Of a stretch of 48,649 nucleotides of DNA, positions 10,570 through 48,582 are shown piece by piece. The position numbers were made by a program, and so were the translations under genes. Position 1 is the stretch's first letter. Each line of letters starts with the position of its first letter. The notes beneath the pieces are model-generated. The model was not told where the DNA came from. It was given only the letters and a program-made list of their open reading frames with translations, and did no database searches. The DNA lies in the IMG/VR virus record IMGVR_UViG_3300044911_000889, positions 1 through 48,649 of that record; one strand, given 5' to 3'. The DNA is from a virus (taxonomy: Duplodnaviria > Caudoviricetes).

Positions 10570-11180
10570 CCGAGAAGCTCAACGCCAACACCACCCTTGA
10601 CAAAGTTCTTGGGTATGTGGATTCGCCGTTTAAACTCTTTGCGGTGATCCTGATGGCGGTGATTGCGTTTGCTGGCTATGCCTTGTACGAGAGCCAGGAC
10701 TTTATCCGCGATGCATACAAAGAGTCCAAGAAGCTGCCTGAAATAAACACAGCGCGGGTGGAGGACACTTCTGCAATGTTGTTTAAGCAGACCGGCGCAA
10801 CGGTTGTAGCCATATTCAAGGTCAATCCGCTTTTCAACTCTCGGACGTTGTATCGCGCTTACACCAAAGAGGGCCGGGACAAGAGCATTGAAGACATTGA
10901 CGTTGGGCTGTTCACGCAAAACGCATCCAACAATGCCGATGTCGTCAAGCTGATGACGAATGAGATTCCTTGCGGCGAATACCGCTACGCGCAGTCTGAG
11001 GTCGGGCTTTGGTACATACAGAACGGGGTGGCGTTCACTTGCCGGGTCAGTGTGCCACCTGACTTCAACAGGTTTGTCGGTCAGGTTACTGTCGGTTGGA
11101 CGGAGCCACCTAAAAACCTAGAGCAGACAAAATTCATGCTGGAGATTGCCAGCGCAATGTTAACTAAAAGGGGTGGGTAA
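10566..11180 (+). CDS. N-terminally anchored membrane protein of the lysis region
   Basis: Single TM helix then a globular domain; coupled start and stop. Confidence 0.7.
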   Translation: MTEKLNANTTLDKVLGYVDSPFKLFAVILMAVIAFAGYALYESQDFIRDAYKESKKLPEINTARVEDTSAMLFKQTGATVVAIFKVNPLFNSRTLYRAYTKEGRDKSIEDIDVGLFTQNASNNADVVKLMTNEIPCGEYRYAQSEVGLWYIQNGVAFTCRVSVPPDFNRFVGQVTVGWTEPPKNLEQTKFMLEIASAMLTKRGG

Positions 11181-11683
11181 TGCTTTCACTAATTTCGACT
11201 CTCGGCGGCCTGCTGATCAGCGGCCTGCCCAAGCTGCTTGAGTTCTTCCAGAACAAGGCAGACCAAAAACATGAGCTTGCCTTGGCGCGACTCCAGAACG
11301 AGCGGGAGCTTGCTCTCGCCGCTCAGGGATACGCCGCCCAGCAGAAGATCGAGGAAATCCGCACTGATCAGGTCGCAATGCAGACCGAGGCGCAGATGAC
11401 CGAGGCTGCGCTCAAGCACGACGAGCAGGTGCTTGATAAGGCCCACAAGTGGGTCGCGTCCTACGTCGGCACCGTGCGCCCGACAGTGACCTACATCTTC
11501 GTGATTGAGCTTGTGCTGATCAACGCCTTCATGGCGGTGTACCTGTGGAATCATCCCGGCCTGATCACCAGCATCGACGATGTGGTCAAGTACTCTGGCC
11601 TGATCTTCTCCAGTGACGAGATGGCAATGCTGGGCGGTATCATTGGCTTCTGGTTCGGTTCTCGTCAGTGGAGCAAGAAGTGA
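11180..11683 (+). CDS. Holin-like protein (3TM GTA-holin type)
   Basis: VRP.VTY...TM...GFWFGSR motif directly upstream of the lysozyme. Confidence 0.7.
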   Translation: MLSLISTLGGLLISGLPKLLEFFQNKADQKHELALARLQNERELALAAQGYAAQQKIEEIRTDQVAMQTEAQMTEAALKHDEQVLDKAHKWVASYVGTVRPTVTYIFVIELVLINAFMAVYLWNHPGLITSIDDVVKYSGLIFSSDEMAMLGGIIGFWFGSRQWSKK

Positions 11684-12183
11684 AACTAAGCAAGGCCGCC
11701 GCTGCGATGATGCACAAGTACGAGGGGTACAGAAACCGCCCGTATTTGTGCCCAGCGCACATGTGGACTATAGGATACGGCCATGTGCTGTACCAAGACC
11801 AGATTCGCCTGCCGATGGCACGAGTGGACAAGCCTGTGCTGATGATCCGAAAAGAAATGCCGTTACGACCGGAGGACAATCGTGTCTGGACCAAGCAAGA
11901 AACTGATGATCTATTCGACGCTGACATTGCATCTTTTGAACGCGGTGTTCTTCGTCTTGTTCCCGGCGTTGTTGGGCATCAAGGCCGCTTTGACGCTCTG
12001 GTCTCTTTTGCATACAACGTAGGGCTGGGCAATCTCCAGCGCAGCACGGTGCGGATCAAGGCAAACCGTGGAGAGTGGGAAGGGGCGGCAGACGCCTTAT
12101 TGCTTTGGAACAAGGCCGGGGGTAAAGTGTTTGTAGGGCTGGACAGGCGTCGGAAAGACGAACGCGCTTTATTTCTGTCGTAG
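11680..12183 (+). CDS. Endolysin, GH24 lysozyme
   Basis: EG.R..PY.CPA..WTIGYGH, FDALVSFAYNVG, WNKAGG...GL.RRR..E; probable GTG start overlapping the holin stop. Confidence 0.92.
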   Translation: MKLSKAAAAMMHKYEGYRNRPYLCPAHMWTIGYGHVLYQDQIRLPMARVDKPVLMIRKEMPLRPEDNRVWTKQETDDLFDADIASFERGVLRLVPGVVGHQGRFDALVSFAYNVGLGNLQRSTVRIKANRGEWEGAADALLLWNKAGGKVFVGLDRRRKDERALFLS

Positions 12184-12190
12184 GATTACT

Positions 12191-14521: not shown

Positions 14522-14562
14522 ATGTACAAGGTACAAAACAACATGTATTGGGGTGCTACACC

Positions 14563-14904
14563 ATGCTTGTAACATCAGAATATGAGATTGCAAGGATTGC
14601 AGCTCCTAGCTTGCCAGTACCGCCGGTGGAGTATTCCTACGTCTATGGGGAACAGCTAAACAACGTCCTTCGCCTATATTTCAACCGCCTCAACAGTATT
14701 GCAGGGCAGCTTGCAACTTCTGGAGTTATTCCAGCGCTAACAAACTATACCGTTGCAAAACTTCCCAGTGCTGCAACATCAGGTGTAGGAGCAAGATCTT
14801 TTGTTACTGATGCAACTGCTCCCACGTTTGGATCTACGGTAGCTGGTGGTGGCGCTGTAGCCACGCCTGTGTACTCAGACGGAACAAACTGGAAAGTTGG
14901 TTGA
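14563..14904 (+). CDS. Putative virion protein
   Basis: LP.PP.EY...QLNNVLRLYFN motif; C-terminal PVYSDGTNW fibre-like tip. Confidence 0.7.
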   Translation: MLVTSEYEIARIAAPSLPVPPVEYSYVYGEQLNNVLRLYFNRLNSIAGQLATSGVIPALTNYTVAKLPSAATSGVGARSFVTDATAPTFGSTVAGGGAVATPVYSDGTNWKVG

Positions 14905-14905
14905 C

Positions 14906-21710: not shown

Positions 21711-24700
21711 ATGGCAATCGATTACACAAAGTTCAGTGATGCGGACCTAAGAGCGATTGCTGCGAATGATGTTTCTTCGCTATCCACTGAAGCTTTGAGG
21801 CTGATCGCAGGCCAAGATGCGCCACCTGCCCCCAAACCACCCTCTACAGAGCGCACATTTGGTGAGGCCATCAAGGATGTTCCTGCCTCCCTGCTTACTG
21901 GTGCAGGCAGTCTTCTCCAGGCCCCCGGCCAACTTGTTAAGCTTGTTCCCGGCCTGAAGAGAGTTGGTGAAGCTCTTGAGGTTCCCGGCGAAGCTGTTCA
22001 GAGATTTGGCATTGACCTTAAATCCACTGGTTTAAAGGCCCGTGAAGCTCTGCGTAGCCAAGCTATGTCTGAGGCTGAGAAGGAAGGTGTCCTTAGTGAG
22101 TTTGCTACAGCAATCACTTCCACCCTGAAGGATCCTGCCCTCATCACATCCTTCATAACTGAACAAGTTCCAATGCTTCTTGGTCCTCTGGGTGCTGCCC
22201 GGCTGACCACAAAGCTTGGAATGGGTGCTGTTGAGGGTGCTGCTGCTGGTGCCGCCCGCGAGGCTGCTGCTGCAAAACTAGGCCAGAGGGCCACTGCCGC
22301 CGCCATCGGAACCGGCACAGCTATGCAGGCTGGCGATGTTTCCGGCGAAACCTACACCAACACGTTGAAACGCGCCCTGGAGATGGGCATGTCTCAACAA
22401 GAAGCTGAAGATGCAGCTTTAAACGCAGCCCGTATTGCCGCTGCTGGTGCTGGTGCTGTCTCTCTCGGTGCAACCCTTGGCCTGAGTAAGATTGGCGGGG
22501 CAGCAATTGAGCGCCGTCTTGCTGGTCTCCCTGGCAGGGGCAGGATCCAAAGTGGTGTTGGTGAAGCAACCTCTGAGACCCTGGACGAAGCTGGCGGTCA
22601 ACTCTTCCAGAACATAGGTATCCGTACAGTAGATCCCAGCCAATCTCTGACAGCAGGTGTTGGTGGCGCTGCTGCTATGGGTGCTTTGGGTGGTGGCTTC
22701 TTTGGCTCTATGTTGGGCAAAAGACCTGATGCTGATCTAGCTCCGGGCCAACGCCCTGGTGAGACTCTCCAAGAAACAGCAACCCGTTTAAATGCTCAGA
22801 TTGGTGCTTTGACTGAGCAGGCAAAAGAGTTTGATGCTGACCAGACCAGAACACAAGCTGGCCTGATGACCAACACTCAGTTGATCGACATGTATCGTGA
22901 CAAGGGTTACGGTGCAGTTAAACAGTATCAACAGCAGCTTGTGGCGCAGGCATCAGATCCCAATGTTCCACCCGAGCAGAAGACCGCTGCCCGTCAGGCC
23001 GCTCAGCAGATTGAAGATCTATTTAAACAGGTAGATCAAGAAGAAACTTCAAGGCGGGCAAAGGCTGAAGTATCCAACATAATCACCGACAAAGATGTCA
23101 CCATAAACCTAGGCATTCCAAGGAAAGACCCGCTCTACCAACAGCTTGTAAACAAGAACCTAGGCAGGCCAGAAGATGCTGAAGCGGTTATTCAGGCGCT
23201 TGAGTCCGCTCTTTCCCGCAAAGGTCTAAGGCAAACCCAGTATGAGCGGTTTAACACTGCCCTGTCTGTTGTAAACGAATATCTTGCCACCATCCCAGGA
23301 AGTGGGTTCTATGCTAGACCGTCTGTCGAACAACCAAGTGGAACAAGCCCTGTCGTGGCTGGCGTCACCGGTGCTGACACCGCCACCACAGGAGGTGGAA
23401 CATCTCAACCAAGTGGAGTGGTACCTGCTAAACCAGATGCTGCACAGCCTGCTGGCAGAAAAGCAGAGCCAACCACTCCAATAACTGAAGAGGCTGTTAC
23501 CCCGCAAGCAGTTGAGGAGAAGGTCAGTGAAGAAAAGCCTGCTGAAGAAGTTGCTGCGCCTAATGTACAAACTACCGCTGCCCAAGAAGCACCGGCACAA
23601 CCTGTTACTGCTCCTGTTGAAGTAGCAGAGGCACCCAAACCTGTTGCAAGCAATCTGCCTAAAGAGTTGGCAGGGGCTAAGCCTCGTTATTCCTACGGCA
23701 ATAAGCAGTTTCAACTTCAATTTAACTCTGACATCGACAAAGCGCTTTACATCACCGCCCAGAAGACACCTTCCCGGCGTGATGCTGACTACCGCTCTTG
23801 GCTTGAAGCGCAAGGATTTACACCTGATCAAATTGCCCAGGGCGGGCAACAGGTTCGTGAGGCTATCAAGGGTGTGGCGGCAAAGGCAGACCCTGCCACC
23901 GGCCCAATCAATCTGCCTGCTCAGACTAAGAAGAAAACCAAAAAGAGCATCCGTGCCGCCGAACCACTAACTGAACAAGATGTTGAAGGTCTTGGCGTTC
24001 GCCGTACTGCTCCAGCATTTAAACGTATTGTTGGCAAGACAATTGAAGAGGCTCGTGATGAGCTAAACAAGTACAGGTCACTGCCTGATCGTTACGTTTC
24101 TCAGGAAACTAAACGCAAGATTGCGGAAGCTTTGGGCGAAAAGGTTGCAGAGTCTGAAGCAAAGCCTGAAGTTAAAGAAGCTCCAAAGGAGAAGACCCAG
24201 AAGGATCTCATCCTTGAGCAGAGGGCAGAGTTGATCAAACAACTCGATGGCATCCTCAAGAAGATCCTTGCTAAGTACAACCTGACCGGCGTCACCCTTG
24301 ACCTCGATGAGAGCATGGCAGATGAAGGCTCCTATGGAGCGCAGATCATCAAGCTTGCTTTAAACGTAGATAGTCCAGTCAGGGTGCTGCGCCATGAGTC
24401 CATCCATGCTCTTAAGGATATGGGCTTCTTCTCTGATGCTCAGTGGAAGACCCTGGTCAAGAAGGCTCAGGATGAGTGGGTTGATAAGTACCTGAAGAAC
24501 AGGGAGCATAGCGCCACCCAATCGCGCTATGACGCATATGTTGAGCTTCTGACCAATGAAGGTAAAAACCCAACCGAGGTTCAGGAAGCAATCATTGAAG
24601 AGGCCATTGCTGATGCGTTTGGTGATTTTGATGTAAACGGTGCAACCCCTGGGTTGATGGCTGCCATCCTTAAGCGGATGAAGAACCTGTTTAAAGCAAT

Positions 24701-27700
24701 CAAAGAAGCCTTTGGTGTGGCAGGTATCGATACCGCAGAAGAGATCTTTGGCAAGATTGAGAAGGGTTCCCTGAAGCCTGAGATCCCGATGGGCAAAGAG
24801 CAGGCCCCCAAGATGAGCCTGCGTGGTGTGCCTATGTCCACCCGCCCCATCATGGAGTCCAGTCCACTTTTCGCCATGAATGAGCTTGGCCTTAAGACTG
24901 AGGGAGTCAAAAAGCCAGGGGGCATCTTTCTGTTCAATGATGTGCGCTCTATCGCCAATGCGCTTAACCGCGACACGGTTAATAACTACGGCACCATTGA
25001 CAAAGAAGACACCTCTGCTAACGCAAGGAATCTGATTGCAAAAGCAATCGCAGATGAAGTTGCCTATCAGGTTGGAACTACATCTCAGACCGGCACCGGC
25101 CTGGGTTGGTATTCAAACAACTACCCTAAAGCTGTAAAGAAGCTGGCCCGGAAGTACCCTGAGCTTGGTAACAACGAACATGCGCGGTCTGTGTTCTCTG
25201 CCCTAGTAGCCATCACATCCAATGGCGAGAAGGTGTCGCTCAACATTAAGAACGCCATCAATCTGTATGACAAGCTGCGCTCTGGGGAGCCAATGATTGC
25301 GCCCGGTTCGCGCCGTGCAACCGCCCTGGACAACAACTTGCAGATGGTGCAAGACCTTCTTGAAAAGCATGGCACCAACTTCAAGAATGTTCTTCTTCAA
25401 GAGATCCTTGTTAAGGACATGAACGCAGCCCTCAGGGCAATGGGCGAGAAGCCATCTGGCGATTACTTGGCTAACACCAAGGTGCCTGCTGCCGCCGTTT
25501 ACTTTGGACCCAAACTTGGAGCTTTCTACGCCAATCTGGAAGGTGCTGAAGGCTACCTGACAATGGACATGTGGTGGACACGCAGCATCAACAGGATGCG
25601 CGGCTTGCTGATGCCACAAGCCACAGAAAGTTCCATCAATAAATTCCGCGAAATAGCAGGCAATCCAAACATGACCCGTGACGAGGTGATTGCTTCAACA
25701 ATACCGTTGCGGGATCGTTACGAAGAGCTTGCTTGGACAACTGATCTTGAATACATGGTTGGCGAGAAGGAGCCTTCCACTAAAGATGAGAAGCCCGTAT
25801 GGACAGCCAGGGCCAAGCGCAAAGCAGGCCCTGCCTACGAGCAACTTAAGCTTGAGCATGATGTGATGAAGATGGCTAATACCATCTACAAGAACGAGTA
25901 TGAGATGCTTGAAGAGGCTCCCTTTGGGGCCAATGACCGTGAGTTTATGTATCGTGCTGTGCGAGAAGCGCAGAAGATGCTCAAACAAGACGGCGTAGAT
26001 CTAACACTAGCAGACATTCAGGCTGCCCTATGGTACTATGAGAAACGCCTGTACCAGCACTTGAGCGGAAGGAAAGCAGATGACATCGGATATGACGAAG
26101 CAATCAGCGCCGTGGCAGGAGAGAGTGATCGACCCGCTGGACCCTCTGTGGTTTTCGATCAGCAACCTGACCGTGGGGCAGACACCGGAGCAGGCGTCAA
26201 AGACACTGATGGAGTTCGTAGAGAGCCTCCCGAAGCAGGACAAGTAGAAAAGAAGAGTCTTAGAGGTGTGGTTGCAGAAGTTGCGCCAAACCCCGACATT
26301 CCGGTTGCTGCTAGCTGGAGACAGATGACGCAGGCCGAAAGGCTTGATGCAACAAGGTCTGTTGCCAAAAAAGTCATCGACCCTATTCTTTCAGACATGG
26401 GCCTGAAAGGGTATTCGTTTAAATTTTCATCTGGCAAGTATGAGGGGGAAGTAAACCCCAACATTCTGATTGAGGCTCCAGAGTCGGCCACAGTTGGTGA
26501 GCTTGAAGAGGTGGCCCGTGTTGTTGGTTACATTCTTGATCAGAAGGCGATGGTTGCCTATGACGAGTACAACACAGATTCTGGGGATCAGGCTGGATTT
26601 GTAAAAGTCATGATACCTGCCGGGATGGACGACAAGACAGTCACCCTGCTGCGTAACCACATTTCTAAAGAAGTTCCTCAGGCTGATGGTGACACCTTGC
26701 GAGATGGGTCACTTGTGTACGGCAACTTCTCGGCGTACAACGACAATGTTGACACATTGAGTGATGAGGAATATCATGACGCAATTGTTCGCGCTATCGA
26801 GGACTTTGACTACAGCGAAAACATCAAGGTTTCGGACCCTCTGAAGTTTCACAGTCAGTTGGTCTGGCCGGACAACAGAGAGTCTTATTTGGAAGGAACG
26901 CGCTATGGCGAAAGTGGAACGATTCGTGGTGGAGAGGGGTCAGATGTTTGGCGGCAAAGGCGCAGCCGTTTGGAGGCCATCTCAGAACAAGCAATCGCCC
27001 TCAGGGACAGATGGATCGACGCCCGAGGCGCTGCTCGCATCGGAGGTAGAGCAGGCGATTCTGCGGCTATCAGCACAAAACCTACCGCAGAATACGGAAA
27101 ATCAATAGATGGCTCAGAGACTGCTGTTGGTGTTCATTTCAGTCAACAGCCAAGAGCCACTCTCGACTCGCAGTTTTACGGTGCCGGTTTGCGCGGCATG
27201 GAGCGAGAGCGTCTTGAGGGGCAGCCAGATATACGCAACCGGATCTACTTCTATGTAGACACAGGCAAGGGCGTATTTCCTGAGGCAGGCGTTGGTGGAT
27301 CTCCACATGTAATACGTCTCAACAATCTTTACAACGTACTCAAAGATGAGCTTGACCTTGTAAAGAAAGCCAAAGGAGATACTGCTGCTGAAAGAGCAAA
27401 CGCTTGGGAAAAGGCAATTAAGAATGCCGGTTTTGATGGCTACTTCTTCCCAGATCCTCTTCAGCGGCAAGGCTATGCCGTTCTGATTGGCAAGCATCGC
27501 GTTGAGACAAAGTTAAGCCTGCGCTCTGAGTCTCCTGAGTTTAAATTCTGGTTTGGCCAATCCAAAATCGTTGATGAGGATGGTAAGCCGAAGGTTATGT
27601 ACCACGGCACCGGCAAGGACTACACAGTTCTTGGCACTGGCCGCCGTCAAGCAAAGGCTATCTTTGTAACTGATGATCCAGAGTTTGCTCAGAAGTTTGC

Positions 27701-30700
27701 TATCGACACGTTTAACCGTGCAGCAGAGGAGGCGGCACAGGGTGTCGGCATGTCAGAAGAGGCTTACAAAAGTGGTGTAGCCAGGGCCATTGCCGCCGTT
27801 AAGAAGGACTACAAGAATCTGCCTGAGGGTAAGGCAATGATTGAGGGTATCCGCAAAGGATACGCTGATGCCAGCCCCGAGGCTCAGGAGTACATGAGGA
27901 ACGCCTTCAGGGACGCTCTTCCTGCTGGCCCCAACATCCTGCCCATCTACGTCAAGGCAGAGTTCCCATTCGACTACGATAACAAAGATCATGTAAACGC
28001 AATAATTAACAAGCTTGGCAACACTTTTGATAGCAATGGTTGGTTAAAAGAAAGAGGACTTTCTAGAAACATCTTTTTTGGCGCATGGGAATTGATTGAG
28101 CGGCCAGATGTTCAATCCGTTATTCGTGAACTTGGCTTTGACTCTTTTTACGTCAAAGAGGGTGGTAGAAAAAGCCTTGCCGTTTACAGCCCCACACAGA
28201 TCACATCTGCTACCGGCAATGTGGGTGCTTATGGACAGCGTCCTATAACTGCTGAAGAGGCTGGCCGGTTTGGCATGACCGAAGAGCAGGCAGCAGAAGC
28301 ACAGGGGCGTGGTGACATCCGGTTCAGCCTTCGTTCCACCCTGCCTGCATCTGCCATCAGTGCGATGGATAAGATTGCTCCTCCAAGGTACAACCCTGGG
28401 TTTGCAGAGCGGATGATGAATGCTGTGTCCGGCGACACATTTACATCTATCCGGCAAAAGCTCATCAACCGTTACGAAGCTCTTGCATCTGTTGACCGCC
28501 GTGTTGCCAAGATGCTTAAGCAGATGGGTGGCGCACCACAGCTTGCTGGCTCCAGGGCCGAGACCGCAGCCCTCATGTCTGATCTTGGGGCAGGTGTCCT
28601 TGAGGCAGCTATGGGTGTACACAACGGTATCGGTGGCGCTCCCATCTACCGCAACGGTGTAACCACTGTGTCCGACTACAACGGTACAGTTAAAGGTCTG
28701 CTTGAAATATATAAACCCATTGCCGCGATGAAGGATCCTGATGCCTTCCGGATGTATCAGACCTGGGCAGCAGTTAAACGAGGTGTAAGGCTGGACGCAG
28801 AGGGCCGTGAAGACCTAATCACAGCAGCAGACATCCGCTCAATCAATGACCTGCGCCGTAGCAATCCAGACCTGATCAAAACTTTTGAGTCGGTACAGAA
28901 AGACTGGATCGCCTACAACAACGCCCTGGTCAAGTACCAAGTTGATACGGGCGTCCTATCGCCGGAGATGGCAAAGGAATGGACCAAGCATGGTGACTAC
29001 TTCCCCTTCTATCGCTTGATGGAGGGTGAGGACATTGCCGGGCCTAAGGTGTTCTCCTCCATAGGTAATGTCAGCCGGGGTAAAAAGCTCAAGGGTGGCG
29101 AGAATCCTTTGGGTGATTTCTTTGAGAACATCGTCAGAAACAGTCAGGCTGCCATCCAGGCTGGCATGAAGAACATTGCCGCTCAGACCGCCACGAAACA
29201 GGCAATGATGCTGCAAGAGGTTACCCGTTTAAATTACAAGCCCAAATCCCATGAGCAGGTTTACAGGGTGTATGAGAACGGCAAAGAGGTCTACTACAAA
29301 GCCCACGATCCTCTGTTCATTGAAGCAATCAAGGCTTTAAACATGGCAGACATCCCCTTCATGGGGTTGTTGGCTAAGCCTGCGGCAATGCTGCGGAACT
29401 TGGTGACCAAGGATCCTGCCTTCATGCTGGCAAACATGATGAGGGACTCTCTGTCTGCATGGGCCACTTCCGGTGTCAAGATGACTCCGATGATTGACAC
29501 CTTTAAGAACTTCGGCGCAGCCATTGCGGGTAAGTCTCCAGAGCTTAACGCCCTGTATGCTGCTGGTGTTCTGGGGGGATATGACTACGCCCGTGGAACT
29601 AAGCAATCGGCTGAAGTGTTTGAGACAACCTTGCGCCGTCGTTCAGGGCAGATGACCCCCTTTGAGGTTGGAACTAAGCCGTTTACATCTCTGTGGGAGG
29701 CCCTGGAGAAGGGCACTCAGGCATCTGATGCCGCCACCCGGATGGAGGTTTACAAGAAGACCCTGGCCTCTACAGGTAATGAGCTAGAGGCTCTGTCTGC
29801 CGCGCTTGAGGTGATGAACTTCAACCGTAAGGGCAACTCAGCAATCATCAGGATTCTGACCGCTGCTGTGCCGTTCCTAAACGCCAGGATCCAGGGTCTG
29901 GACATTCTGTTCCGTACCGCCATCATGCCGCTTGGAGGGAACGCTACAGACCAAGCCCGTCAACGCATGAAGACCTTCTGGGTCCGTGGTATGACCATCA
30001 TGGCCCTGTCCAGTATGTATTGGCTCCTCACCCACGATGATGAGGAGTACAAGAAGCAGGAGCAGGAGACCCGTGATAACTACTGGCTGATCCCCTCTCT
30101 GGGTGTGAAGATCCCCATCCCGTTTGAGGTTGGTGTGATGTTTAAAGTCATACCGGAAAGGCTCATGCAGTTGAGCTTCGGTACAGACACCACGAAGGAC
30201 TTCACTGACTCCATGAAGCGTCAGCTTGTAAGCACCTTCGCGTTTAACCCGATACCTCAGGTGGTTCTGCCTCTCTATGAGACCAAGACCAATCATTCCT
30301 TCTTCACTGACCGGCCCATCATCGGCAAGGGCCTGGAGAATGTGGCTGACAAGTATCAGGTTGGACCCAGCACCTCCCGTGTAGCCCAGATGCTTGGAGA
30401 CTCCGTCAACTACTCGCCCATGAAGATCGATCACCTGATCAAAGGGTACACAGGAACCATCGGCTCCTATGCATCAGACCTATTTGACATGATGTATGAC
30501 ATGGGTGCTGATGCTCCTAAGGCGTCTAAACGCTTTGAGCAGATGCCTGTGATTAAACGATTCCTCGTAGACCCTGAGGCGCGGGGAACAGTTACAGCGT
30601 ATTACAAGCTAAAGGATGATGTAGATCAGGCTGTCAGGACAACAAACCTTCTTGAGAGATCAAACAACTTCGAAGAAGGAACGAAGTACACCCTGGAGAA

Positions 30701-30893: not shown

Positions 30894-31161
30894 GAAGTCT
30901 ATTTTCAAACAATTCACCAATGGTGGCATTAAGAACGGACATTTCTGTTTTTTTCATGACATTCCAGATGTGTCGCCTGCCATGTAAACCATTATGATTT
31001 CCCTGATGACAGTCTTTACAAAGTGGAATACAGGTAAAGTGGCTTCCTTGTTCTATGTGATGGGCATCGCTGGGAGGCGGTGCCCCGCATACTCCGCACG
31101 GCATTGATTTGATAACCCCAAAATATTGAGATTCAGTTTTATTAATGTTTTTGCTTTTCAA
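30874..31161 (-). CDS. Zn-finger HNH-like nuclease (DUF968/Ref-like)
   Basis: PCGVCG...AHHI...CIPLCKDCH.G..G.H motif; 20-bp convergent overlap with the giant gene. Confidence 0.75.
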   Translation of the reverse strand: MKSKNINKTESQYFGVIKSMPCGVCGAPPPSDAHHIEQGSHFTCIPLCKDCHQGNHNGLHGRRHIWNVMKKTEMSVLNATIGELFENRLLTVRTS

Positions 31162-31747
31162 TTTGCTTTATCTTTCCACTCAAAATCCATCTTGCAATTG
31201 TTGATTTTGAAACATTGAGCAATTTTGCTGCTTCTGATGTAATCATTATTTGATTGTTTACAAACACAAAAACATTGGTTGATCTGTTGGCAGCCTGCTC
31301 TTTGGCACTTGCCCAACGTATGTTCCCAGGAAAGTAGCCTTTTTCGTTGTCAATTCTGTCAATACTTAATTGATTATTTAAAGGTTCACCAATGTATTTG
31401 GCAAAATTTTCAAAGACAAGCCACTCTGAAAAAATTCCTATGCCAACCCCGCCATATCTATCGTAATGACTGCTGTTGGGTTTTGTTGTTCTTTCAACAA
31501 TACCTTTCCAAGTCTTCCAAAGTTTTGTTTTTGTTTTTCCGTGACGAAGGTTTAACAACGACATTCTTTCTGAGCAAGTTTTTTTTCTTGTGCATCCACA
31601 GCTTTTGCTGTTACCTTTTTTTAAATTACCGGCAAGGCAAACGGTTTCTCCGCCACAACTACAAAAGCATTTAAATTTTTTTTGTCCATGCCTGTCAACG
31701 CCAGCAAATTCAGAAACAGTCAGAAGACCAAATTTCTCTCCAATCAT
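31142..31747 (-). CDS. HNH-type homing endonuclease
   Basis: G.KFG.LTV..C.C.CG..SCGC, YGG.GI...W..FENF, SIDRIDN.KGY.PGN.RWA; AT-rich. Confidence 0.85.
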   Translation of the reverse strand: MIGEKFGLLTVSEFAGVDRHGQKKFKCFCSCGGETVCLAGNLKKGNSKSCGCTRKKTCSERMSLLNLRHGKTKTKLWKTWKGIVERTTKPNSSHYDRYGGVGIGIFSEWLVFENFAKYIGEPLNNQLSIDRIDNEKGYFPGNIRWASAKEQAANRSTNVFVFVNNQIMITSEAAKLLNVSKSTIARWILSGKIKQIEKQKH

Positions 31748-39336: not shown

Positions 39337-39483
39337 GGGTAGTGTAGCTCAAAAAGAGCAGAGTAATCTTCCGGTTGGAATGTGCGGCTTTATGATTTGA
39401 GTCCATTTGCCCAAAACATCTTTAAGCGTTTAAACGCGATACACCTGATACCTTGACCCAATTGCTACATTTAAACGTAGCAC

Positions 39484-39512
39484 TTGACAACGACGGAACT
39501 CTCTCTTAAAAT
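39484..39512 (+). promoter_or_regulatory. Near-consensus sigma70 promoter
   Basis: TTGACA-17 nt-TAAAAT. Confidence 0.75.
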
Positions 39513-39537
39513 CGCCCCACGGCGATTTTAAGAGAGA
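39500..39537. repeat. Perfect 17-bp inverted repeat with 4-nt spacer
   Basis: TCTCTCTTAAAATCGCC-ccac-GGCGATTTTAAGAGAGA. Confidence 0.95.
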
Positions 39538-39580
39538 CCCGTAAAGATGTTTCGGTGGTACAGCTTGTGCCATTTAAACG

Positions 39581-39766: not shown

Positions 39767-39796
39767 TTGACACACCCTGATCTTCTTTGATAGAGT
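39767..39796 (+). promoter_or_regulatory. sigma70 promoter
   Basis: TTGACA-18 nt-TAGAGT with TGn extension. Confidence 0.7.
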
Positions 39797-39802
39797 CTTC
39801 CC

Positions 39803-39901
39803 TGTTGCCGTGGAAAGCGACAAGTGAAAGCCGTTACACATGCTCTCGCCCTTGGTCTTAACCGAAGGGTTTCCACCGAGGGCAGTTGTAACGGCTTTTT
39901 T
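39803..39901 (+). ncRNA. Candidate pseudoknotted small RNA or attenuator leader
   Basis: Four nested stems, a 7-bp loop-junction pairing GTGGAAA/TTTCCAC, and a terminal U tract. Confidence 0.6.
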
Positions 39902-40922: not shown

Positions 40923-42610
40923 ACCTTGATGTTGACTTCGAGGGCAGATCCTCCAGGGTGGTCTGCCCCTACTGCGCTGACACGCGCAGGAAATCCAACC
41001 TAAAAGAAATGACGCTGACCCGGCAGTCAGATGGTGCAGTTCTGTATTACTGCCACCACTGTGATGCAAATGGGTCGGTACAAGCTAAGGAGTTTAAATT
41101 GGCAGCAGTCCCAGCACTGATCCCGCCGACAAAGGGATTGGGAGAGAAAGAATACGCATGGCTTCAGGGCAGAGGTATTTCAAAGGAGACAGCAGACAAG
41201 ATGAAGCTGTTCCCAGAGACGAAGTACTTTAAACGCTTAGAGCGTAACGCCGACGCGATAGGGTTCCCATATTTCCGTAACGGTGTGTTTATGGGAACCA
41301 AGTACCGATCGTTTCCTGAGAAGGACTTCACTCAGGATGCAGGTGGCAATCATGATTTCTTTGGGCTTGATCAGGTAGAACTGGGCAAGCCCATTGTCAT
41401 TGTGGAGGGTGAGATTGATTGTTTAACTGCGATGGAGGCAGGGATAGAGAATGTGGTGAGCGTACCGTCGGGGGCACCAGTGAAGGTGGCAGACGGTAAG
41501 GTATCTCCTACAGAGGACAAGAAGTTTGCCTATGTATGGAACGCCAGGGAAGTGCTTGACGCAGCACCTTATGTAATCATTGCAACAGATCAAGATCCAC
41601 CAGGGCAGGCTCTTGCCGAAGAGCTAGCAAGGAGGATCGGCAAAGAGAAGTGTCGCATCGCCAAGTTTGACAAGAAGGATTTGAACGAAGTATTCAATGA
41701 CCCTCCTCGGCATGACCCCCCTCGGAGTGGGGCGGAGTCGGTGCAGGCGGTCGTGGACGGGGCCAAGCCGTACCCGATCTCGGGGCTGTCCGACGCCGAC
41801 ACCTATTTTGAGCGTTTAAACGACCTATTCGACAAGGGTACGGGCAAGGGGTTTAGCACCGGGTATGCGTCGGTGGATTCGATTTACACGGTGGCACCAG
41901 GGCAGTTGACGGTGGTGACCGGATACCCATCGTCGGGTAAGAGCAACTTCGTCGATCAGATCATGGTCAACCTCGCCTCAAAGGAAGATTGGAAGTTTGC
42001 GGTCTGCTCCTTTGAGAATCAGCCCGAGGTCCACATCGCCCGATTGATGGAGATCTACACGAAAAAGAAGTTCTTCGACGGCCAGATGCGGATGAGCAAG
42101 GAAATGATGACTGAAGCGTTTAAATGGGTGAAGGATCACTTCCTATTCATCGATTCGAATGGTGAAGAACCCAGCACCCTCGATTCAATCCTGGAGCGGG
42201 CCAGGGTGGCAGTTAAACGCATGGGGGTCAGGGGTCTGGTTATAGACCCGTACAATTACATCGATCTAGAACGCAGGGATACAACGGAAACGGAAGCAAT
42301 CAGCAATATGCTGACCAGGGTGCAAAAGTTCTGCAAGGCGCAAGATGTCCATGTCTGGTTTGTAGCGCACCCATCGAAGATCCAGCGTTCGGGGGTGGAG
42401 CAGCCCAGGCCAGACGGTATGAGCATCAGCGGATCGATGGCGTGGTGGGCGAAGACTGACTGCGGGTTGACGGTTCACAGGGGGGAGGGGACCACGGTAG
42501 AGATCGCGGTCTGGAAATGCCGGTATAGGTGGGTCGGCACCCAGGGTGAGACTAGCCTTGTGTACAGCAAGGAGTCAGGAAGTTATTACGAAAACCTCGA
42601 CAAGTTTTAG
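40919..42610 (+). CDS. Primase-helicase (T7 gp4/Twinkle-like)
   Basis: Zn finger CPYC...CHHC; TOPRIM EGEID and D.D.PG; Walker A GYPSSGKS; VIDPY, VAHP.K, ISGS. Confidence 0.92.
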   Translation: MNLDVDFEGRSSRVVCPYCADTRRKSNLKEMTLTRQSDGAVLYYCHHCDANGSVQAKEFKLAAVPALIPPTKGLGEKEYAWLQGRGISKETADKMKLFPETKYFKRLERNADAIGFPYFRNGVFMGTKYRSFPEKDFTQDAGGNHDFFGLDQVELGKPIVIVEGEIDCLTAMEAGIENVVSVPSGAPVKVADGKVSPTEDKKFAYVWNAREVLDAAPYVIIATDQDPPGQALAEELARRIGKEKCRIAKFDKKDLNEVFNDPPRHDPPRSGAESVQAVVDGAKPYPISGLSDADTYFERLNDLFDKGTGKGFSTGYASVDSIYTVAPGQLTVVTGYPSSGKSNFVDQIMVNLASKEDWKFAVCSFENQPEVHIARLMEIYTKKKFFDGQMRMSKEMMTEAFKWVKDHFLFIDSNGEEPSTLDSILERARVAVKRMGVRGLVIDPYNYIDLERRDTTETEAISNMLTRVQKFCKAQDVHVWFVAHPSKIQRSGVEQPRPDGMSISGSMAWWAKTDCGLTVHRGEGTTVEIAVWKCRYRWVGTQGETSLVYSKESGSYYENLDKF

Positions 42611-42665
42611 ATTATCTTTTGTGGGATATAAAAAGATAATTGCGTTTAAACGATCATCAGTAGAC

Positions 42666-43339: not shown

Positions 43340-43358
43340 AGGGTCCTCTACTGGTTTC

Positions 43359-43382
43359 AAAAAACAGGGCCGGGTGGCCCTG
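43359..43382 (-). terminator. Intrinsic terminator after the vWA gene
   Basis: CAGGGCC-accc-GGCCCTG-T6 on the minus strand. Confidence 0.65.
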
Positions 43383-43387
43383 CATCC

Positions 43388-45025
43388 TCATGCGGCCAGC
43401 TTGATCTGACCGAGTGCTACCCTGCCCAGGTCGGCCATATCGTTGACCTGCACCGCCTGGGTATAGACGCCACTGACGTTGTGCTTGATGCCTACGCCGA
43501 TGGTGGTGATGCCCAGGGCCTCGCCTGCCTGGGCCTGCTGCCGCGCAGCCTGACGGTTGCCATCGCCATCGGTCAGCACAAAGCAGACCTTCCGAGCCTC
43601 TGGCCTGCCTCGCAGCAGGTCATGGGCATATCGGATGGCGGCATAGTCGTTGGTGCTGCCACCGTCCCCGATGCGCTCCAGAGTCTTGATCTTGGCCTTG
43701 GCGCGGGTATCAAACCCAGCAGCGAGGGACACCATGCTGCCGAATGTGACGATTGCGCTTTTGACACCCGCAGCCTCAAGGGTTTCGACCAGGGCGGCGG
43801 CAGCGTTGACGGCGGCAGTAATGACCGAGATATGGTCGAACATCGAGCTACTAACGTCCACCACAATTACCACTGCCGAATCGATCCCGTCAATGTCGCG
43901 GCGCAGTTGGAACAGGGCGTCCGACTGACCGAATTTGTGCAGGGCGCGGGGGTTGATAGCGCCCGACTTACGGTTGGGGCTGAGCATTGTTGTCGCGCTA
44001 TCCTCGAACAGGCGGCGCACTTCATAGCGAAGCTTGGCGGGGACGGTTACCCTGCATTGCAGCCTGTCGTAGTTGTTGATGTGATAGCGATCCTTGGCCA
44101 GATCCGCACCTGTAGACCATGTGCCGCTGCTGGCTGCACCCTCAGGGGCCTTGACCGATGGCTCAACCTCGACGGGATCACAGTCCTGGCCTGGGGCAGT
44201 CGCAGAGCCGTTTTCCTGGTCTGCTGCACCCTCACCCTGCCCCTGATCGGCGCTCTGAGCGGGTTCTGATGCGTCCTGGGGGCCTTCCTGATCACCCTGT
44301 CCAGGCTGACCTTGGTCTTGGCCCTGATCCTGCCCAGGTTGACCTTGGTCGGGCTGACCTTGGTCGGGCTGATCTTGCTGCTCTGGCCGCTGGGGCAGCG
44401 CCTGCAACTGTGCATAGATCCACGCGGCCAATTTAAACGTTTCGTCGGTGCTGGTGCAGGTCAGCACCCTGGCGGCGGCAGCGTCGAAGATCGGGGACAG
44501 GCCAGCAGGCAGGGGGATCTTGTTGGCAGCATGGCGGCGCAGGTAGATTGCCAGCAGGAAGGGATACTGGCAGGGGTCAGACCAGTCGCTGACCTCGGCC
44601 TTAGCCTCAGTGACCATCTGATCGACCAGACCACCGAGCAGGCCAGCAATATTGCCGAGCAGGCCAGCGTCAATTGCTGAGTGTTCGATCCAGGCATCCT
44701 CGACTGCATTGTGCAGCGCAGCAAGGTATGGGACCTTGTCATATTTAGGATCAAAGTTGGTGTACTTACGGTGCAGCAACTCATGCACGACAAATCCACA
44801 GTACCTCACCAGGGTGGCGCGGGTGATGGTGGCGTCATCATTGACGTTGGACAGATAGATCTCGCCCCGTGCGCTGATGGCAGCGGTGCGGATGCCGCGC
44901 TGCCACTCCAGGGTCACCGCAGCCAGATCCAGGGCCGCGCAGGCATGGTGAGTGAAAGCCTCGACACCCTGGCGCAACTCCCATCCTTTGATGGTGGCGC
45001 GATTGAAAAGGACATTGTGATTCAT
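43388..45025 (-). CDS. CobT-like protein: N-terminal HExxH domain, acidic Q/G linker, C-terminal vWA
   Basis: HELLH..YT...N.VED.WIE; MIDAS DVSSSM...T.D...LTDG. Confidence 0.85.
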   Translation of the reverse strand: MNHNVLFNRATIKGWELRQGVEAFTHHACAALDLAAVTLEWQRGIRTAAISARGEIYLSNVNDDATITRATLVRYCGFVVHELLHRKYTNFDPKYDKVPYLAALHNAVEDAWIEHSAIDAGLLGNIAGLLGGLVDQMVTEAKAEVSDWSDPCQYPFLLAIYLRRHAANKIPLPAGLSPIFDAAAARVLTCTSTDETFKLAAWIYAQLQALPQRPEQQDQPDQGQPDQGQPGQDQGQDQGQPGQGDQEGPQDASEPAQSADQGQGEGAADQENGSATAPGQDCDPVEVEPSVKAPEGAASSGTWSTGADLAKDRYHINNYDRLQCRVTVPAKLRYEVRRLFEDSATTMLSPNRKSGAINPRALHKFGQSDALFQLRRDIDGIDSAVVIVVDVSSSMFDHISVITAAVNAAAALVETLEAAGVKSAIVTFGSMVSLAAGFDTRAKAKIKTLERIGDGGSTNDYAAIRYAHDLLRGRPEARKVCFVLTDGDGNRQAARQQAQAGEALGITTIGVGIKHNVSGVYTQAVQVNDMADLGRVALGQIKLAA

Positions 45026-45034
45026 GATAAAACC

Positions 45035-46528
45035 TCAGATCAATTTGTTGATGACAGAGTCGCTGATGCAGGACTCGAAAACACTTTGCAGGGCCACCGC
45101 AGATTCGGCAGGCTGAGCGGCGGCGATGGTGGCATCCCATGCAGCGCGGACAGGCAGGACCGCCAGCGCCTCGATAAATGCCATGACGTTGCGGATGCTG
45201 GGGGCATCGATGATCTCCCCTGCCTGGACCTTGGCCCGTGCGACACCGATTGCGTCCAGCACATAAGCCGCAAGCTTTTCGGAGCAGCCGGTACGCTTGA
45301 CCACCGCCTCGATCTCGACTGCGCGGGGCAGGAATGTCATATGCACCACCTGACCGAAACGATTGAGCAGCGGCGCACCCTGGGCGCGGGTGCCAGCATA
45401 GCGTCCGGTCTGGTCACCATTGCCAAGAGTATTGTCAGCGGCCAGGATCATGACACCGGGGGCCTTAGACCAGACCTTGCCGCCGAACGTCACCGCAGCG
45501 CTCGGTTCCAGAAACCCGTTTAAAGCATTCAGGACGCCGGGGTCAGCGTTAGTGATCTCATCGAGCAGGATCACGCTACCAGGGGTTGAATAAGCCTTGA
45601 GGAAGGGTCCGGGTTCGAAAGCGGTCGAACCGTTGTCCAGGCCAGTCGCGCCCAGGAAGTCCTCGACAGTGCTGAATCGTTGAAAGTTGATACGTGTAAA
45701 CGCACGGCCAGTGCGAGCGGCGAATTGTCGGGCAGTCTCGCTTTTGCCTGCGCCCTTTTCACCGCCCAGCCAAATGTTAGCCAGGGTGCTGCTGGCAGAA
45801 GATGCCAGTAGCAGGTGCCGCAGGATCTCCTCAGTCCAGACAAAGCAAGGATCGATGGCGGGGGCATCGGCGCGGTGCCAGTGCGTGAGGTTCATCACCT
45901 GGGCCTTTGCATCGGTCACCCGGACACCGAATGCAATCTCCGAGTCAACGATCTGGCAGGCTGACAGGATAGAGGCAGTGTCGGCCACCTGGGTTTCGAC
46001 ACCGGCGGCAACCACCGCCGATTTAAACGCACCGAAGGCAGCATCCACCTGAGCAGCCACGGCGGCATCGATGGCGGTCTGATCGATGGTGACCTTAGGC
46101 TGAGCAGCCAGGGCAGTGATCTGATCGGACAGGGTGGTGAGACTGTCATTGAAAGCAACATTGACCCTGCCCTGCCCATCGCGCAATTTGTTCATCTCGC
46201 GGCTAAAGTCGGACACCCCATCTGTCACCCTGGAGCTAAGCGCCGACAGCCGAGCGCCAAGGGCATTGGCCTGATCCTCGATATGCTGGCGCAGGGCAGC
46301 ATCCACAGTATTGAGCATGATGGCGTCCACCGCCTGAGGCGCAGCAGCCGCAGCAGCGCGGCGCAGGTCGGCCAGGGTCAGGCCCCTGTCGAGGGCCAGT
46401 TTTGCCAGATCATGGCAGGCCACCGATTTCTTGGTGGGGATCTGGTCATGCGGGTAATACCTGCGCCAAACGTCCGACACCTCAGCGGTGGACAGGGCGG
46501 CAATCTCATTGAATGTTGCGATAGTCAT
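45035..46528 (-). CDS. MoxR/CobS/CbbQ-like AAA+ ATPase with N-terminal coiled coil
   Basis: Walker A GEKGAGKS; Walker B ILLDE; AADNTLGNGD..GRYAG; L.NRF; PSIR. Confidence 0.9.
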   Translation of the reverse strand: MTIATFNEIAALSTAEVSDVWRRYYPHDQIPTKKSVACHDLAKLALDRGLTLADLRRAAAAAAPQAVDAIMLNTVDAALRQHIEDQANALGARLSALSSRVTDGVSDFSREMNKLRDGQGRVNVAFNDSLTTLSDQITALAAQPKVTIDQTAIDAAVAAQVDAAFGAFKSAVVAAGVETQVADTASILSACQIVDSEIAFGVRVTDAKAQVMNLTHWHRADAPAIDPCFVWTEEILRHLLLASSASSTLANIWLGGEKGAGKSETARQFAARTGRAFTRINFQRFSTVEDFLGATGLDNGSTAFEPGPFLKAYSTPGSVILLDEITNADPGVLNALNGFLEPSAAVTFGGKVWSKAPGVMILAADNTLGNGDQTGRYAGTRAQGAPLLNRFGQVVHMTFLPRAVEIEAVVKRTGCSEKLAAYVLDAIGVARAKVQAGEIIDAPSIRNVMAFIEALAVLPVRAAWDATIAAAQPAESAVALQSVFESCISDSVINKLI

Positions 46529-46557
46529 GATGGTTTCCTTTTTGATAATGGGGGGGA

Positions 46558-47169
46558 TCAGGCAAGGGTGAAAACGTCACCGCAGACACAGGTGGGCAGA
46601 CCCTTAGCAGCCCACTTAGCGGTCAATCGAATGGTGTAGCCGCAGCCGCACACTGCCTTGAGCATCCGGGTAGGCTGAGTCTTAGCCTCGGATCTCATGT
46701 TCAATTTGGCATGAGGGTATGCACCCAGGCCCGACAGCACTGCCTGATAGCGGGTGTCGAATGAGGCATTCCCTTTAGTGGCTTTCCATGAGGCGGCAAG
46801 GGGCATCAGGCCGACAGACACGCAGGCAGCACCGAATCGGGCGCCATGATTCATATGTCCGCAGGCATGGACTAGCTCATGCACCAGCACCTCAAGCACG
46901 GCGCGAGGCTGATCCACTGTAGGGGATACAAGAATCTCGACTGTGCGGTCAGCGCTCGCCTTAGCAGACCAGCACTCACCGATAGCGCCTGAGCGCTTAG
47001 CATTGGACGGGAAGCCGCAGGAAACCCGCACCTGGGGGACAGACAGACCAGCAGCAGCAAAGGCCGGGGTCAGTGCCACCACTGCGGCCAGCAGCCAGTC
47101 CTCACGGGTGCTATGCACCCCAATGGTATCGTCGATCATCAGGTCATCGGTCATGGTGTCATCTAGCAT
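46558..47169 (-). CDS. SprT-like zinc metalloprotease with C-terminal Zn ribbon
   Basis: TRE.WL, IGECW, LVHELVH...H...F, CGCG...CVCG; RBS GGAGA. Confidence 0.8.
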   Translation of the reverse strand: MLDDTMTDDLMIDDTIGVHSTREDWLLAAVVALTPAFAAAGLSVPQVRVSCGFPSNAKRSGAIGECWSAKASADRTVEILVSPTVDQPRAVLEVLVHELVHACGHMNHGARFGAACVSVGLMPLAASWKATKGNASFDTRYQAVLSGLGAYPHAKLNMRSEAKTQPTRMLKAVCGCGYTIRLTAKWAAKGLPTCVCGDVFTLA

Positions 47170-47220
47170 ATTAGAGGTCTCCAGGTTGGGCACTAGACAC
47201 AAGCGCTAGCGCAGGCTTGC

Positions 47221-47250
47221 ATTCTAGTACTAGACATCATGTAAATGCAA
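47221..47250 (-). promoter_or_regulatory. sigma70 promoter of the SprT-AAA-vWA operon
   Basis: Minus strand TTGCAT-18 nt-TAGAAT. Confidence 0.65.
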
Positions 47251-47434
47251 TAGCCCCACGGATCAGTCGGGTTTAAAGATCTGAGGGTGACTGCCTGGGG
47301 CTGTAAATCTAGGGTGAGTCCGTGCTGGAAAGCATATGTAAACAATATGTAAATTCAGAACAGATTTGAGGCGTTTTTTGGGGTCCAAGCTACCTACCCC
47401 TTACCCAAGGTCCGATCGCGTCTCCTGGGCCGTT

Positions 47435-47451
47435 TTCACCATTTTGGTGCA
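47435..47451. promoter_or_regulatory. NtrC-like binding site
   Basis: TTCACCATTTTGGTGCA versus consensus TGCACCAnnnTGGTGCA (1 mismatch). Confidence 0.5.
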
Positions 47452-47489
47452 TAAGTTATCCACAGGGTTATGCACAGGCACTATCCACA
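47446..47489. promoter_or_regulatory. Cluster of four DnaA boxes
   Basis: TTATCCACA 47456, TTATGCACA 47468, CTATCCACA 47481, reverse TTATGCACC 47446-47454. Confidence 0.75.
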
Positions 47490-47517
47490 GGCTGACTGTG
47501 AGTTTTCATTGGGGAAT

Positions 47518-47532
47518 GCTTAAAAAGTAGGC
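47518..47532. promoter_or_regulatory. Fis-like binding site
   Basis: GCTTAAAAAGTAGGC fits G-n-n-Y-A-(A/T core)-T-R-n-n-C. Confidence 0.45.
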
Positions 47533-47550
47533 AAAGGGCCGGGAAAAGGG

Positions 47551-47579
47551 TTGACCTGACCTATTAAAAGATAGAGAAT
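47551..47579 (+). promoter_or_regulatory. Putative sigma70 promoter for the terS-like gene
   Basis: TTGACC-17 nt-GAGAAT. Confidence 0.5.
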
Positions 47580-47584
47580 TTAGG

Positions 47585-47635
47585 CTGTAAATGCGTACAG
47601 TGCTGGACAAACGGACAGGCTGTAGATTCATACAG
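47585..47635. promoter_or_regulatory. Three tandem LexA (SOS) boxes
   Basis: CTGTaaatgcgtACAG 47585, CTGGacaaacggACAG 47603, CTGTagattcatACAG 47620. Confidence 0.8.
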
Positions 47636-47653
47636 TATGGAAGGAAACACAGT

Positions 47654-48331
47654 ATGGGCAAGCGGAGCAGCCAGGACTATCAGGCGATGTTGGATCAGGC
47701 AGGCGATGAGGCCGAGCAGGCGGTGTCAGACCAGCAATTGCAAGACCTGATCGACCAGCGTTTAAACGCATTAGGCGCTGGCATCAGTGATGTGGGGGAA
47801 CCAGAGGCAGCGGCGGCAGCAGCAGATGGACCAAGGCTAAGAATCGATGGGCAGGCAGCAGGATCTGAGATCCCAAGGGGCAGACCAATTACACCGTCAA
47901 TGATTCGCTTTGCCCAGGGCGTCATAGAGGGAAAGAGTAGACGACAGGCATACCGTGATGCTTACCCGAACGCAAAGGGCGCAGATGCAACCATCAGCGC
48001 TTGCGCCCACAGGCTAAGCAAAGACCCAAGGGTAAAGCAGATGATCCAGACAGGGTGGGATGAGACCGCCGAGGAACTGGCGGATGACAGGGCGGCGCAG
48101 ATCAGGTATGTCAACAGGGCGCTTGTTGCGCTGAGCAAAACAGGGAAGCAGGAAGGCACTCGCCTCAGGGCATTGGAACTGCTAGGCAGGGCAGCAGGTA
48201 TGTACCGTGAGCAGCAGGCAGAGACCGACAAACCACTGACCGCTGAACAACTGAGGCAGGAACTGACAGGGCATTTAAAGCTAGTGTCTATTGCCAAACC
48301 CAAGGCAGCGTCAGGGGGAAGCAGCGTTTAA
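47654..48331 (+). CDS. Terminase small subunit-like protein
   Basis: T....RFA.....G.S...AYR.AY......A.RL..DP.V and RL.ALELLG...GM motifs; RBS GGAAGG supports ATG 47654. Confidence 0.75.
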   Translation: MGKRSSQDYQAMLDQAGDEAEQAVSDQQLQDLIDQRLNALGAGISDVGEPEAAAAAADGPRLRIDGQAAGSEIPRGRPITPSMIRFAQGVIEGKSRRQAYRDAYPNAKGADATISACAHRLSKDPRVKQMIQTGWDETAEELADDRAAQIRYVNRALVALSKTGKQEGTRLRALELLGRAAGMYREQQAETDKPLTAEQLRQELTGHLKLVSIAKPKAASGGSSV

Positions 48332-48432
48332 ACCAGGGGGATTCTGTACTCAAATCCAGCACAATCAACGACCCACCGGAGGGGGGAGGGGGCATTTTGC
48401 GCGTGACGGCCCCGCTCGCGTATACGCTCTAA

Positions 48433-48468
48433 TCCACACAAACGATTCCCTCCTCCACACAAACGATT
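48433..48468 (+). repeat. 15-bp direct repeat with 21-bp period
   Basis: TCCACACAAACGATT at 48433 and 48454. Confidence 0.9.
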
Positions 48469-48582
48469 GCTTCAAATCCAGAAACCCCCCCCCCCCATCA
48501 ATTCCAAATCGCACACCCCCTGGGGGTATATAAAATTTAAATGCGAACATTGGGTTATACTGTGTTCGTTTAAATGGAAGCT

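Follow-up and report, generated by a model that had tools for sequence, protein, structure and literature searches.

A short DNA word built around a TTTAAA core is strongly over-represented in the 48,649-nucleotide stretch that makes up positions 1 to 48,649 of the Caudoviricetes virus record IMGVR_UViG_3300044911_000889 (referred to as the window), and it is maintained by selection at the DNA level. The reader of this word is very probably the Cys4 zinc ribbon at the C-terminus of a SprT-like zincin encoded by the phage itself (46558..47169, minus strand), as judged from its sequence, a structural model and the association between ribbon and word in other elements. We lean cautiously towards the reading that the word is the binding site of this ribbon and that the protein acts as an autoregulated, stoperator-like repressor. 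Repression as such is probably the main role of the reader.

A word under selection at the DNA level

A first-pass annotation, made from the sequence alone, had described a palindrome represented by 27 TTTAAA cores bordered by CG on one side or on both, dispersed between 10627 and 48576. All 27 were recovered in place, and they make up 27 of the 60 TTTAAA cores when CG is required on at least one side. Nineteen lie in called genes, in different frames as described (10 in the Phe-Lys and 9 in the Leu-Asn frame), and 8 lie outside. Four palindromes of 10–12 bp were likewise found where they had been placed. Complete palindromes account for only these 4 of the 27 sites, however; the remaining sites are incomplete and the word is broader, including ATTTAAACG and TGTAAACG. 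Of all half-site combinations in the 60 cores, CA paired with CG is the most frequent (n = 8), i.e. ATTTAAACG.

The most enriched 8-mer of the window is TTTAAACG, with 31 occurrences on both strands against 1.0 expected from an order-2 Markov model of the window. Its enrichment survives the codon-preserving shuffles proposed as a check: inside the 48 called genes it occurs 22 times, compared to a mean of 2.0 and a maximum of 8 in 300 synonymous-codon shuffles, none of which reached 22. ATTTAAAC occurs 23 times in the window (1.1 expected). A sister word overlooked in the first pass, TGTAAACG, is present in 14 copies against 1.7 in the codon shuffles (0/300) and is evenly spread between 2232 and 45702 (Kolmogorov-Smirnov (KS) p = 0.72). 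The information content of the word is confined to 8–10 bp, with none beyond two flanking bases. The asymmetric coding sites of the window show no orientation bias (9 sense and 8 antisense, n = 17).

Relatives were gathered via the primase, which yielded 193 related stretches, 80 of which were kept. Ten are near-complete with lengths of 60–65 kb, and the window belongs to this phage family of ~63 kb. Seven of the ten contain 43–54 copies of GTTTAAAC against 1.1–1.5 expected (about 1.3), and the other three (G006, G009, G010) have relaxed or TGTAAAC variants of the word. Codon choice in the seven relatives is strongly skewed towards the word: TTA-AAC is used in 115 of 130 xGT-Leu-Asn contexts (~10% expected) and TTT-AAA in 130 of 133 G-Phe-Lys-C contexts (~29% expected). 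Synonymous-site conservation, another check suggested in the first pass, was found at orthologous sites of the primase-helicase gene in an alignment of 42 non-redundant genes out of 71 full-length ones. At the palindromic site 41813..41822 (plus strand), CGT TTA AAY is used in all 38 of the 42 rows that have the Arg-Leu-Asn tripeptide. At the Ala-Phe-Lys site 42117..42124 (plus strand), G-TTT-AAA is kept in 33 of 36 Phe-Lys rows. Other primase sites turn over; site 41228, for example, is kept in 1 of 42 rows. An artefact of codon usage, amino-acid content or composition has a negligible probability. AT-rich words do favour gene starts and spacers in GC-rich genomes, as seen in the phage Zeta1847, but the codon shuffles and the codon choice in the relatives, taken together with the primase-site conservation, refute this explanation.

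The zinc-ribbon tail and its association with the word

The SprT-like gene was found in 10 of 10 relatives. The model of the window protein (mean predicted local distance difference test, pLDDT, of 82.5) comprises a zincin domain with a HELVH motif, a low-confidence linker and the Cys4 ribbon. A superposition of the N-terminal fold with Wss1 resulted in a Z-score of 8.0 and an rmsd (root-mean-square deviation) of 3.2 for 103 aligned residues, and with SPRTN in a Z-score of 7.5 and an rmsd of 3.4 for 94 aligned residues; the best Foldseek match of the model is 6mdw (E = 8e-3). At the sequence level no PDB match was found. The Pfam SprT-like match of the window protein (E = 0.046) does not pass the cut-off, and 27 of 32 members of the alignment reach E ≤ 0.1. 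The tail (46561..46701, minus strand) is a module of ~47 residues with two strands and one short helix, characterized by K-x-Q-P-T-R-M-L-K, CxC, Y-T-I-R, W and P-x-C-x-C; its integrity and sequence track the word. Matches to its model are limited to small zinc or iron ribbons (best Z-score 3.4, rmsd 2.1, 33 aligned residues) with no clear match in the PDB, which is no evidence on novelty.

To compare tail and word, 21 named phages and plasmids were hand-picked for diversity from 158–171 phage and 74 plasmid matches; DekoNeimoidia, a weak match without a profile match, was left aside. All 14 carriers with an intact Q-x-T/I-R tail have GTTTAAAC or GTGTAAAC, among them Bogota (39 vs 0.04 expected), Zeta1847 (22 vs 0.08) and Venkman (34 vs 1.7); the weakest are Arya (7 vs 1.0), Alexa (8 vs 1.0), ECO1230-10 and pUT1 (5 each). 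All five elements with a decayed tail (Eden, Skylord, Dismas, Epa5, MW2) hold 0–1 sites, and no alternative word of this kind was found in Eden, Skylord, Epa5 and MW2. Zeta1847 and Dismas both infect Microbacterium, yet they differ in the word according to tail integrity. Two plasmids with a Q-x-K/R-R-H tail contain 10 and 2 copies of CGTGTACACG.

The same association was observed in a set of 97 non-redundant rows of at least 8 kb placed on a quick tree, in which 87 of 90 intact-tail rows reach 0.15 sites per kb. The HExxH motif is kept in 83 of the 97 rows and lost in 14, with three changes on the tree, and 13 of these 14 rows retain the word. In L370 and L372 the encoded protein is a zinc ribbon of ~55 residues alone, yet L370 has 40 sites in 16.7 kb, where 0.6 are expected, and L372 has 19 sites in 6.9 kb. 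Thus, the word follows the tail and not the protease. The stand-alone ribbon genes (5797–5964 in L370, and that of L372) head an early operon, and the sites of L370 start abruptly ~450 bp before the gene.

In a reverse, gene-blind test, contigs were picked by a GTTTAAAC pair in 9 of 64 parts of the collection, and the best 80 of 127 loci were taken, 77 of them new. Among the loci listed, 18 of 36 with further enrichment hold the gene inside the locus compared to 3 of 41 without it. When 27 longer records were searched whole, 9 of 11 enriched records encode the gene against 1 of 16 others (Fisher p = 1e-4). One of the two misses is a family member that is 41% complete; the other is L421, a 17.9-kb record with inverted terminal repeats and 13 fairly evenly spaced GTTTAAAC sites in 10.4 kb. 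In actinomycete chromosomes the sites cluster around the gene (G011, G015 and G016, matches listed); G011 has 58 matches genome-wide, the same as the reversed control (58), with a cluster at the gene. The hosts of carriers comprise Actinomycetota and several proteobacterial classes.

The form of the word may also depend on single tail residues. The window protein has the tail Q-P-T-R, and among 68 rows with at least 8 sites all 4 rows with this proline favour ATTTAAAC over GTTTAAAC, compared to 3 of 64 others. These rows represent three independent pairs on the quick tree, all concordant, so that the sign test is underpowered (p = 0.25), and it was two of these three lineages that had prompted the idea. 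An out-of-sample search for further proline lineages yielded 5 loci, all from lineages already known. As exceptions, the proline occurs without sites in L283, and a shift to the A variant is seen in L036 and G010 although they have no proline. With Q-S-T-N tails (G006, L181, L182) the G preference is lost. The link between the proline and the A-shifted variant is suggestive. A rule drawn by eye, that preference for GTGTAAAC goes with RTT in the tail, was rejected because R5C, L292 and L293 break it.

Site placement and predicted function

Of 15 named carriers, 12 have a cognate site in the 200 bp upstream of the SprT-like gene, where 0.96 would be expected from site density alone, and so does Maureen. 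These sites often adjoin the -35 or -10 hexamer; in L377, L386 and L419 the site is located just past a TTGACA hexamer, and in L370 and L372 sites lie in the promoter of the ribbon-only gene. Over 118 mostly uncultured loci no upstream peak of the perfect word was seen; only the degenerate core becomes more frequent over the final 100 bp, at 41 per 100 loci compared to 11–23 in the preceding bins. The window contains five such degenerate cores (47240, 47272, 47302, 47337 and 47348; 47238..47355) within 200 bp upstream of the SprT-like start, with 0.5 expected. They are candidate autoregulatory operators.

Sites 39429 and 39470, 41 bp apart (39426..39580, plus strand), adjoin a sigma70-type promoter match (TTGACA at 39484, 11/12), and a third site lies at 39573. 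A site pair upstream of the promoter of the replication operon is retained in relatives: of 22 that could be anchored, 16 have at least two sites upstream of a promoter in this region, and in G009 the pair is present as the TGTAAAC variant of that genome. A 42-bp spacing was discarded as a general feature: upstream of the promoter it accounts for 7 of 27 intervals, mostly in close kin, 31 loci offered no promoter anchor, and no genome-wide periodicity was observed. A long inverted repeat (39499–39540) overlaps the -10 element of the promoter match at 39484 and is possibly an operator for another protein or an origin element. Further downstream (39767–39900), another promoter match precedes a conserved leader that is rich in hairpins and terminates in a run of T; the leader is recognizable in most relatives and has no Rfam match. 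In Zeta1847 (L174) and Venkman (L179) many sites fall where genes meet or no more than ~35 bp from a start codon, for which the cause may be regulatory or compositional. The sites of Zeta1847 (16:6) and Yang (14:6) lean towards one orientation, which codon limits may explain.

The first pass had also described a gradient rising along the window. The skew of the 27 sites is real (KS p = 1.8e-4), and 16 of them do lie in the last 9.2 kb (p = 4e-6, for a boundary picked post hoc). Since the window is a fragment, however, the rise is only half of a hump. On the circular genome, site density is highest at the primase region, ~6 kb to the left of the SprT-like gene, and has a trough in the phage tail genes, which are 3–4-fold poorer in sites. 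The reported absence of sites from the first 10.6 kb holds for the 27 cores but not for TGTAAACG, which has three copies there. Nor can this gap be tied to the exchangeability of the tail genes, because widely shared genes are not richer in sites (coefficient -0.48±0.17) and distance from the centre of the hump, which was taken from a histogram and later refitted, explains much of the variation (-0.66±0.08 per 10 kb). The log-likelihood was 52.4 for a symmetric decay and 49.3 for a headful-entry model with one extra parameter; a packaging-end sawtooth at terS (44.5) was rejected, being 8 units worse than the hump. Owing to the common ancestry of the seven genomes, the likelihoods make the result look more certain than it is. 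Density also falls off away from the SprT-like or ribbon gene in Venkman and L370, and is even in five unrelated carriers (Zeta1847, Yang, Bogota, R5C and Pan1).

Based on these observations we propose the following model. The reader would bind as a dimer to two half-sites with the consensus CGT-K-TA-M-ACG, A-shifted on one side in the window. It would repress by covering promoters and by road-blocking inside genes. The targets would be early and replication genes as well as its own promoter. In the window family the protein may switch off early genes or maintain a carrier state without integration. By analogy with SPRTN, an intact HExxH motif could serve as a DNA-activated switch, cleaving either its own protein or one bound next to it on the DNA; this is the least certain step. 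The general idea of the first pass, in which dispersed motifs mark DNA for a protein, is supported; no protein was named there, and the evidence points to the phage's own SprT-like gene. Of the roles suggested there, entry, packaging and segregation fit less well than transcriptional control in view of the promoter sites, the hump and the even spread.

Several observations weigh against the repressor reading. Most sites in the window are inside genes, late structural ones included, and unoriented. Immunity repressors diversify, and one word across phyla is unlike them. The promoter site is missing in 3 of 15 named carriers, and the expectation of 0.96 ignores a general intergenic bias, which inflates the excess: 82 of 339 family sites lie outside called open reading frames (10% of the length), and in four annotated phages 6 of 22, 8 of 20, 14 of 35 and 1 of 7 sites lie outside genes. 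Five loci (L280, L283, L286, L288, L294) have an intact-looking tail but 0–3 sites. No SprT-like or zinc-ribbon match was detected in L421, a candidate for a divergent reader or a helper-dependent element. A tyrosine integrase was found in 0 of 10 relatives and a match to two serine integrases in 0 of 11; a role in lysogeny is therefore unsupported in this family. Other observations favour repression. For the temperate Arthrobacter phages of Cluster AZ, the available portion of a preprint identifies no repressor, lists the SprT-like protein as a candidate and reports clear plaques for Liebe, with a truncated SprT-like gene, and turbid ones for Maureen (bioRxiv 2025.05.26.655371); the two phages also differ at three other positions. 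Cluster EB phages are described as lytic, and the EH phage Zeta1847 as integrase-bearing without a known repressor (PMC7302621, as far as available). This matches the loss of the word in Dismas (decayed tail, 0 sites) and its presence in Zeta1847.

Less likely than repression, although the foremost of the alternatives, is that the same reader coats and guards the DNA of the element about once per kb, while the protease clears host defence proteins or DNA-protein crosslinks and the promoter site sets only the level. The mostly intragenic, unoriented sites, their even spread in the five carriers and the single word across phyla would suit such a guard, as would the Wss1/SPRTN-like fold, the frequent retention of HExxH and the plasmid-borne copies. 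On the other hand, protease-dead lineages and protease-less proteins retain high site densities, the tail-gene region is site-poor and sites lie in core promoters.

We consider it distinctly improbable that the reader serves replication or genome handling, be it origin licensing, plasmid-like partition or the pulling in of first-entering DNA. The density peak at the primase region, the site pair upstream of the replication operon and the falling densities in Venkman and L370 are in line with this, and the headful-entry model is just 3 log-likelihood units worse than the symmetric one. Three DnaA-box-like 9-mers (47456–47489) lie between the SprT-like gene and terS with a similar cluster in 10 of 10 relatives, and in pUT1 the gene adjoins an AAA ATPase, RHH and rep cluster. 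The even spread in five carriers, the lack of a tight parS-like array and the poor fit of the terS sawtooth speak against it. Very little probability remains for a host factor, a methyltransferase or a HIP1-like mutational bias that uses the word while the SprT-like gene merely travels along. The sites of L421 without a detected reader, and the A variant without proline in L036 and G010, would be accounted for in this way. However, the word occurs in hosts from Actinomycetota to several proteobacterial classes, same-host phages differ by tail integrity, and the word changes with the tail. In G011 its genome-wide count equals that of the reversed control, with a cluster at the gene, and no methyltransferase match was found among the 59 window proteins.

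Known systems and phage context

Stoperator sites are oriented with transcription, whereas those of the window are divided about evenly between sense and antisense. The word otherwise resembles the stoperators of Cluster A phages (TipsytheTRex, L5) with dozens of copies in genes and promoters and one phage-encoded protein, but it is an 8–10-bp palindromic or near-palindromic word instead of an asymmetric 13-bp site, probably read by a Cys4 zinc ribbon on a zincin instead of a monomeric protein with HTH and Stoperator domains; immunity is proven there, while here repression is predicted and one word spans phyla and plasmids (PMC9283540, available part). Because three defining features fail, we do not class it as a Cluster A stoperator system.

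SPRTN and Wss1 act on crosslinks without a sequence word, whereas in the present proteins the tail goes with a defined word, and the protease may be dead or absent. Like the window protein, they combine an HExxH zincin fold with a zinc-binding module behind it (PMC5127644, seen in part), and they provide the closest solved folds for its zincin domain. The Cluster AZ proteins Lizalica gp46 and Maureen gp49 are homologous to the window protein (~38–42% identity). For these proteins the available portion of the preprint predicts a SPRTN-like function and mentions repeats 'not shown' near the SprT-like gene; it names no binding word and contains 0 occurrences of TAAAC (bioRxiv 2025.05.26.655371). 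AZ phages have GTGTAAAC and an integrase, whereas the window family has the TTT form and no integrase was detected. HIP1, DNA uptake sequences, parS and matS are also short over-represented words at synonymous coding positions. They are features of host chromosomes, whereas the present word is restricted to the mobile element and tracks a single one of its genes; chromosome-wide abundance of the HIP1 type was not observed, the sites of actinomycete genomes with the gene being clustered at the element. No description of the word-protein pair was found in the literature searched, whose coverage did not extend to most subscription papers and bioRxiv supplements; PMC5313236 proved to have no bearing on it.

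The window encodes tail-fibre and lysozyme genes, a 3060-residue polyvalent protein with ART-PolyVal and LPD38 domains (21711–30893, plus strand) that is probably ejected with the DNA, Sak, an exonuclease, RusA, a primase-helicase, a MoxR/CobS-like ATPase, a vWA protein and a small terminase. The MoxR/CobS-like AAA+ and vWA genes (43388..46528, minus strand) lie directly downstream of the SprT-like gene and are regarded as context only, since the annotations of the carriers Zeta1847, Yang, R5C and Venkman list no such genes. Large terminase, portal and major head genes were not found in the window; two of the ten near-complete relatives supply the large terminase, and portal and major head genes were also seen there. 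The gene content suggests a podovirus-like build. No near DNA match of the window among cultured phages was found, and the primase and AAA+ matches of only ~30% point to no host. The window contained no tRNA or Rfam family, and a partial protein scan of the 59 window proteins and 59 G002/G004 proteins gave no ParB match. Three homing-endonuclease-like genes are located at 1298–1972, 9058–9564 and 31142–31747. CAGGGTG is enriched in the window genes (41 vs 9.6 in codon shuffles, 0/300), and most relatives lack a similar enrichment. CAGCTG, CTGCAG, GCCGGC, GATATC, TGCGCA and CGTCGC each occur 0 times in coding DNA compared to 9–27 in shuffles; this strong avoidance probably reflects restriction sites of the host, whose identity it may hint at.

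For a widespread phage and plasmid family that is currently annotated as a protease or a 'transcription elongation protein', the analysis yields a predicted binding word and an operator as well as a specificity code that can be tested. The question of what represses the temperate Cluster AZ and EH phages, which are without a known repressor, becomes directly testable in phage-host pairs available in culture. If the assignment is true, a zinc module of the SprT family reads DNA sequence, whereas its eukaryotic relatives read DNA structure. More tentatively, and with considerable doubt, the protein may represent a class of repressors in which a sequence-specific zinc ribbon joined to a SPRTN/Wss1-type protease is the analogue of CI, with genome-wide operators, self-cutting on DNA damage and a residue-to-base code (Q-x-T-R for GTTT, proline for A, Q-x-K/R-R-H for GTGT). 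In that case it would fill the place of the missing immunity repressor in the AZ phages of Arthrobacter and the EH phages of Microbacterium, and its tail would be the smallest programmable-looking phage DNA-binding module.

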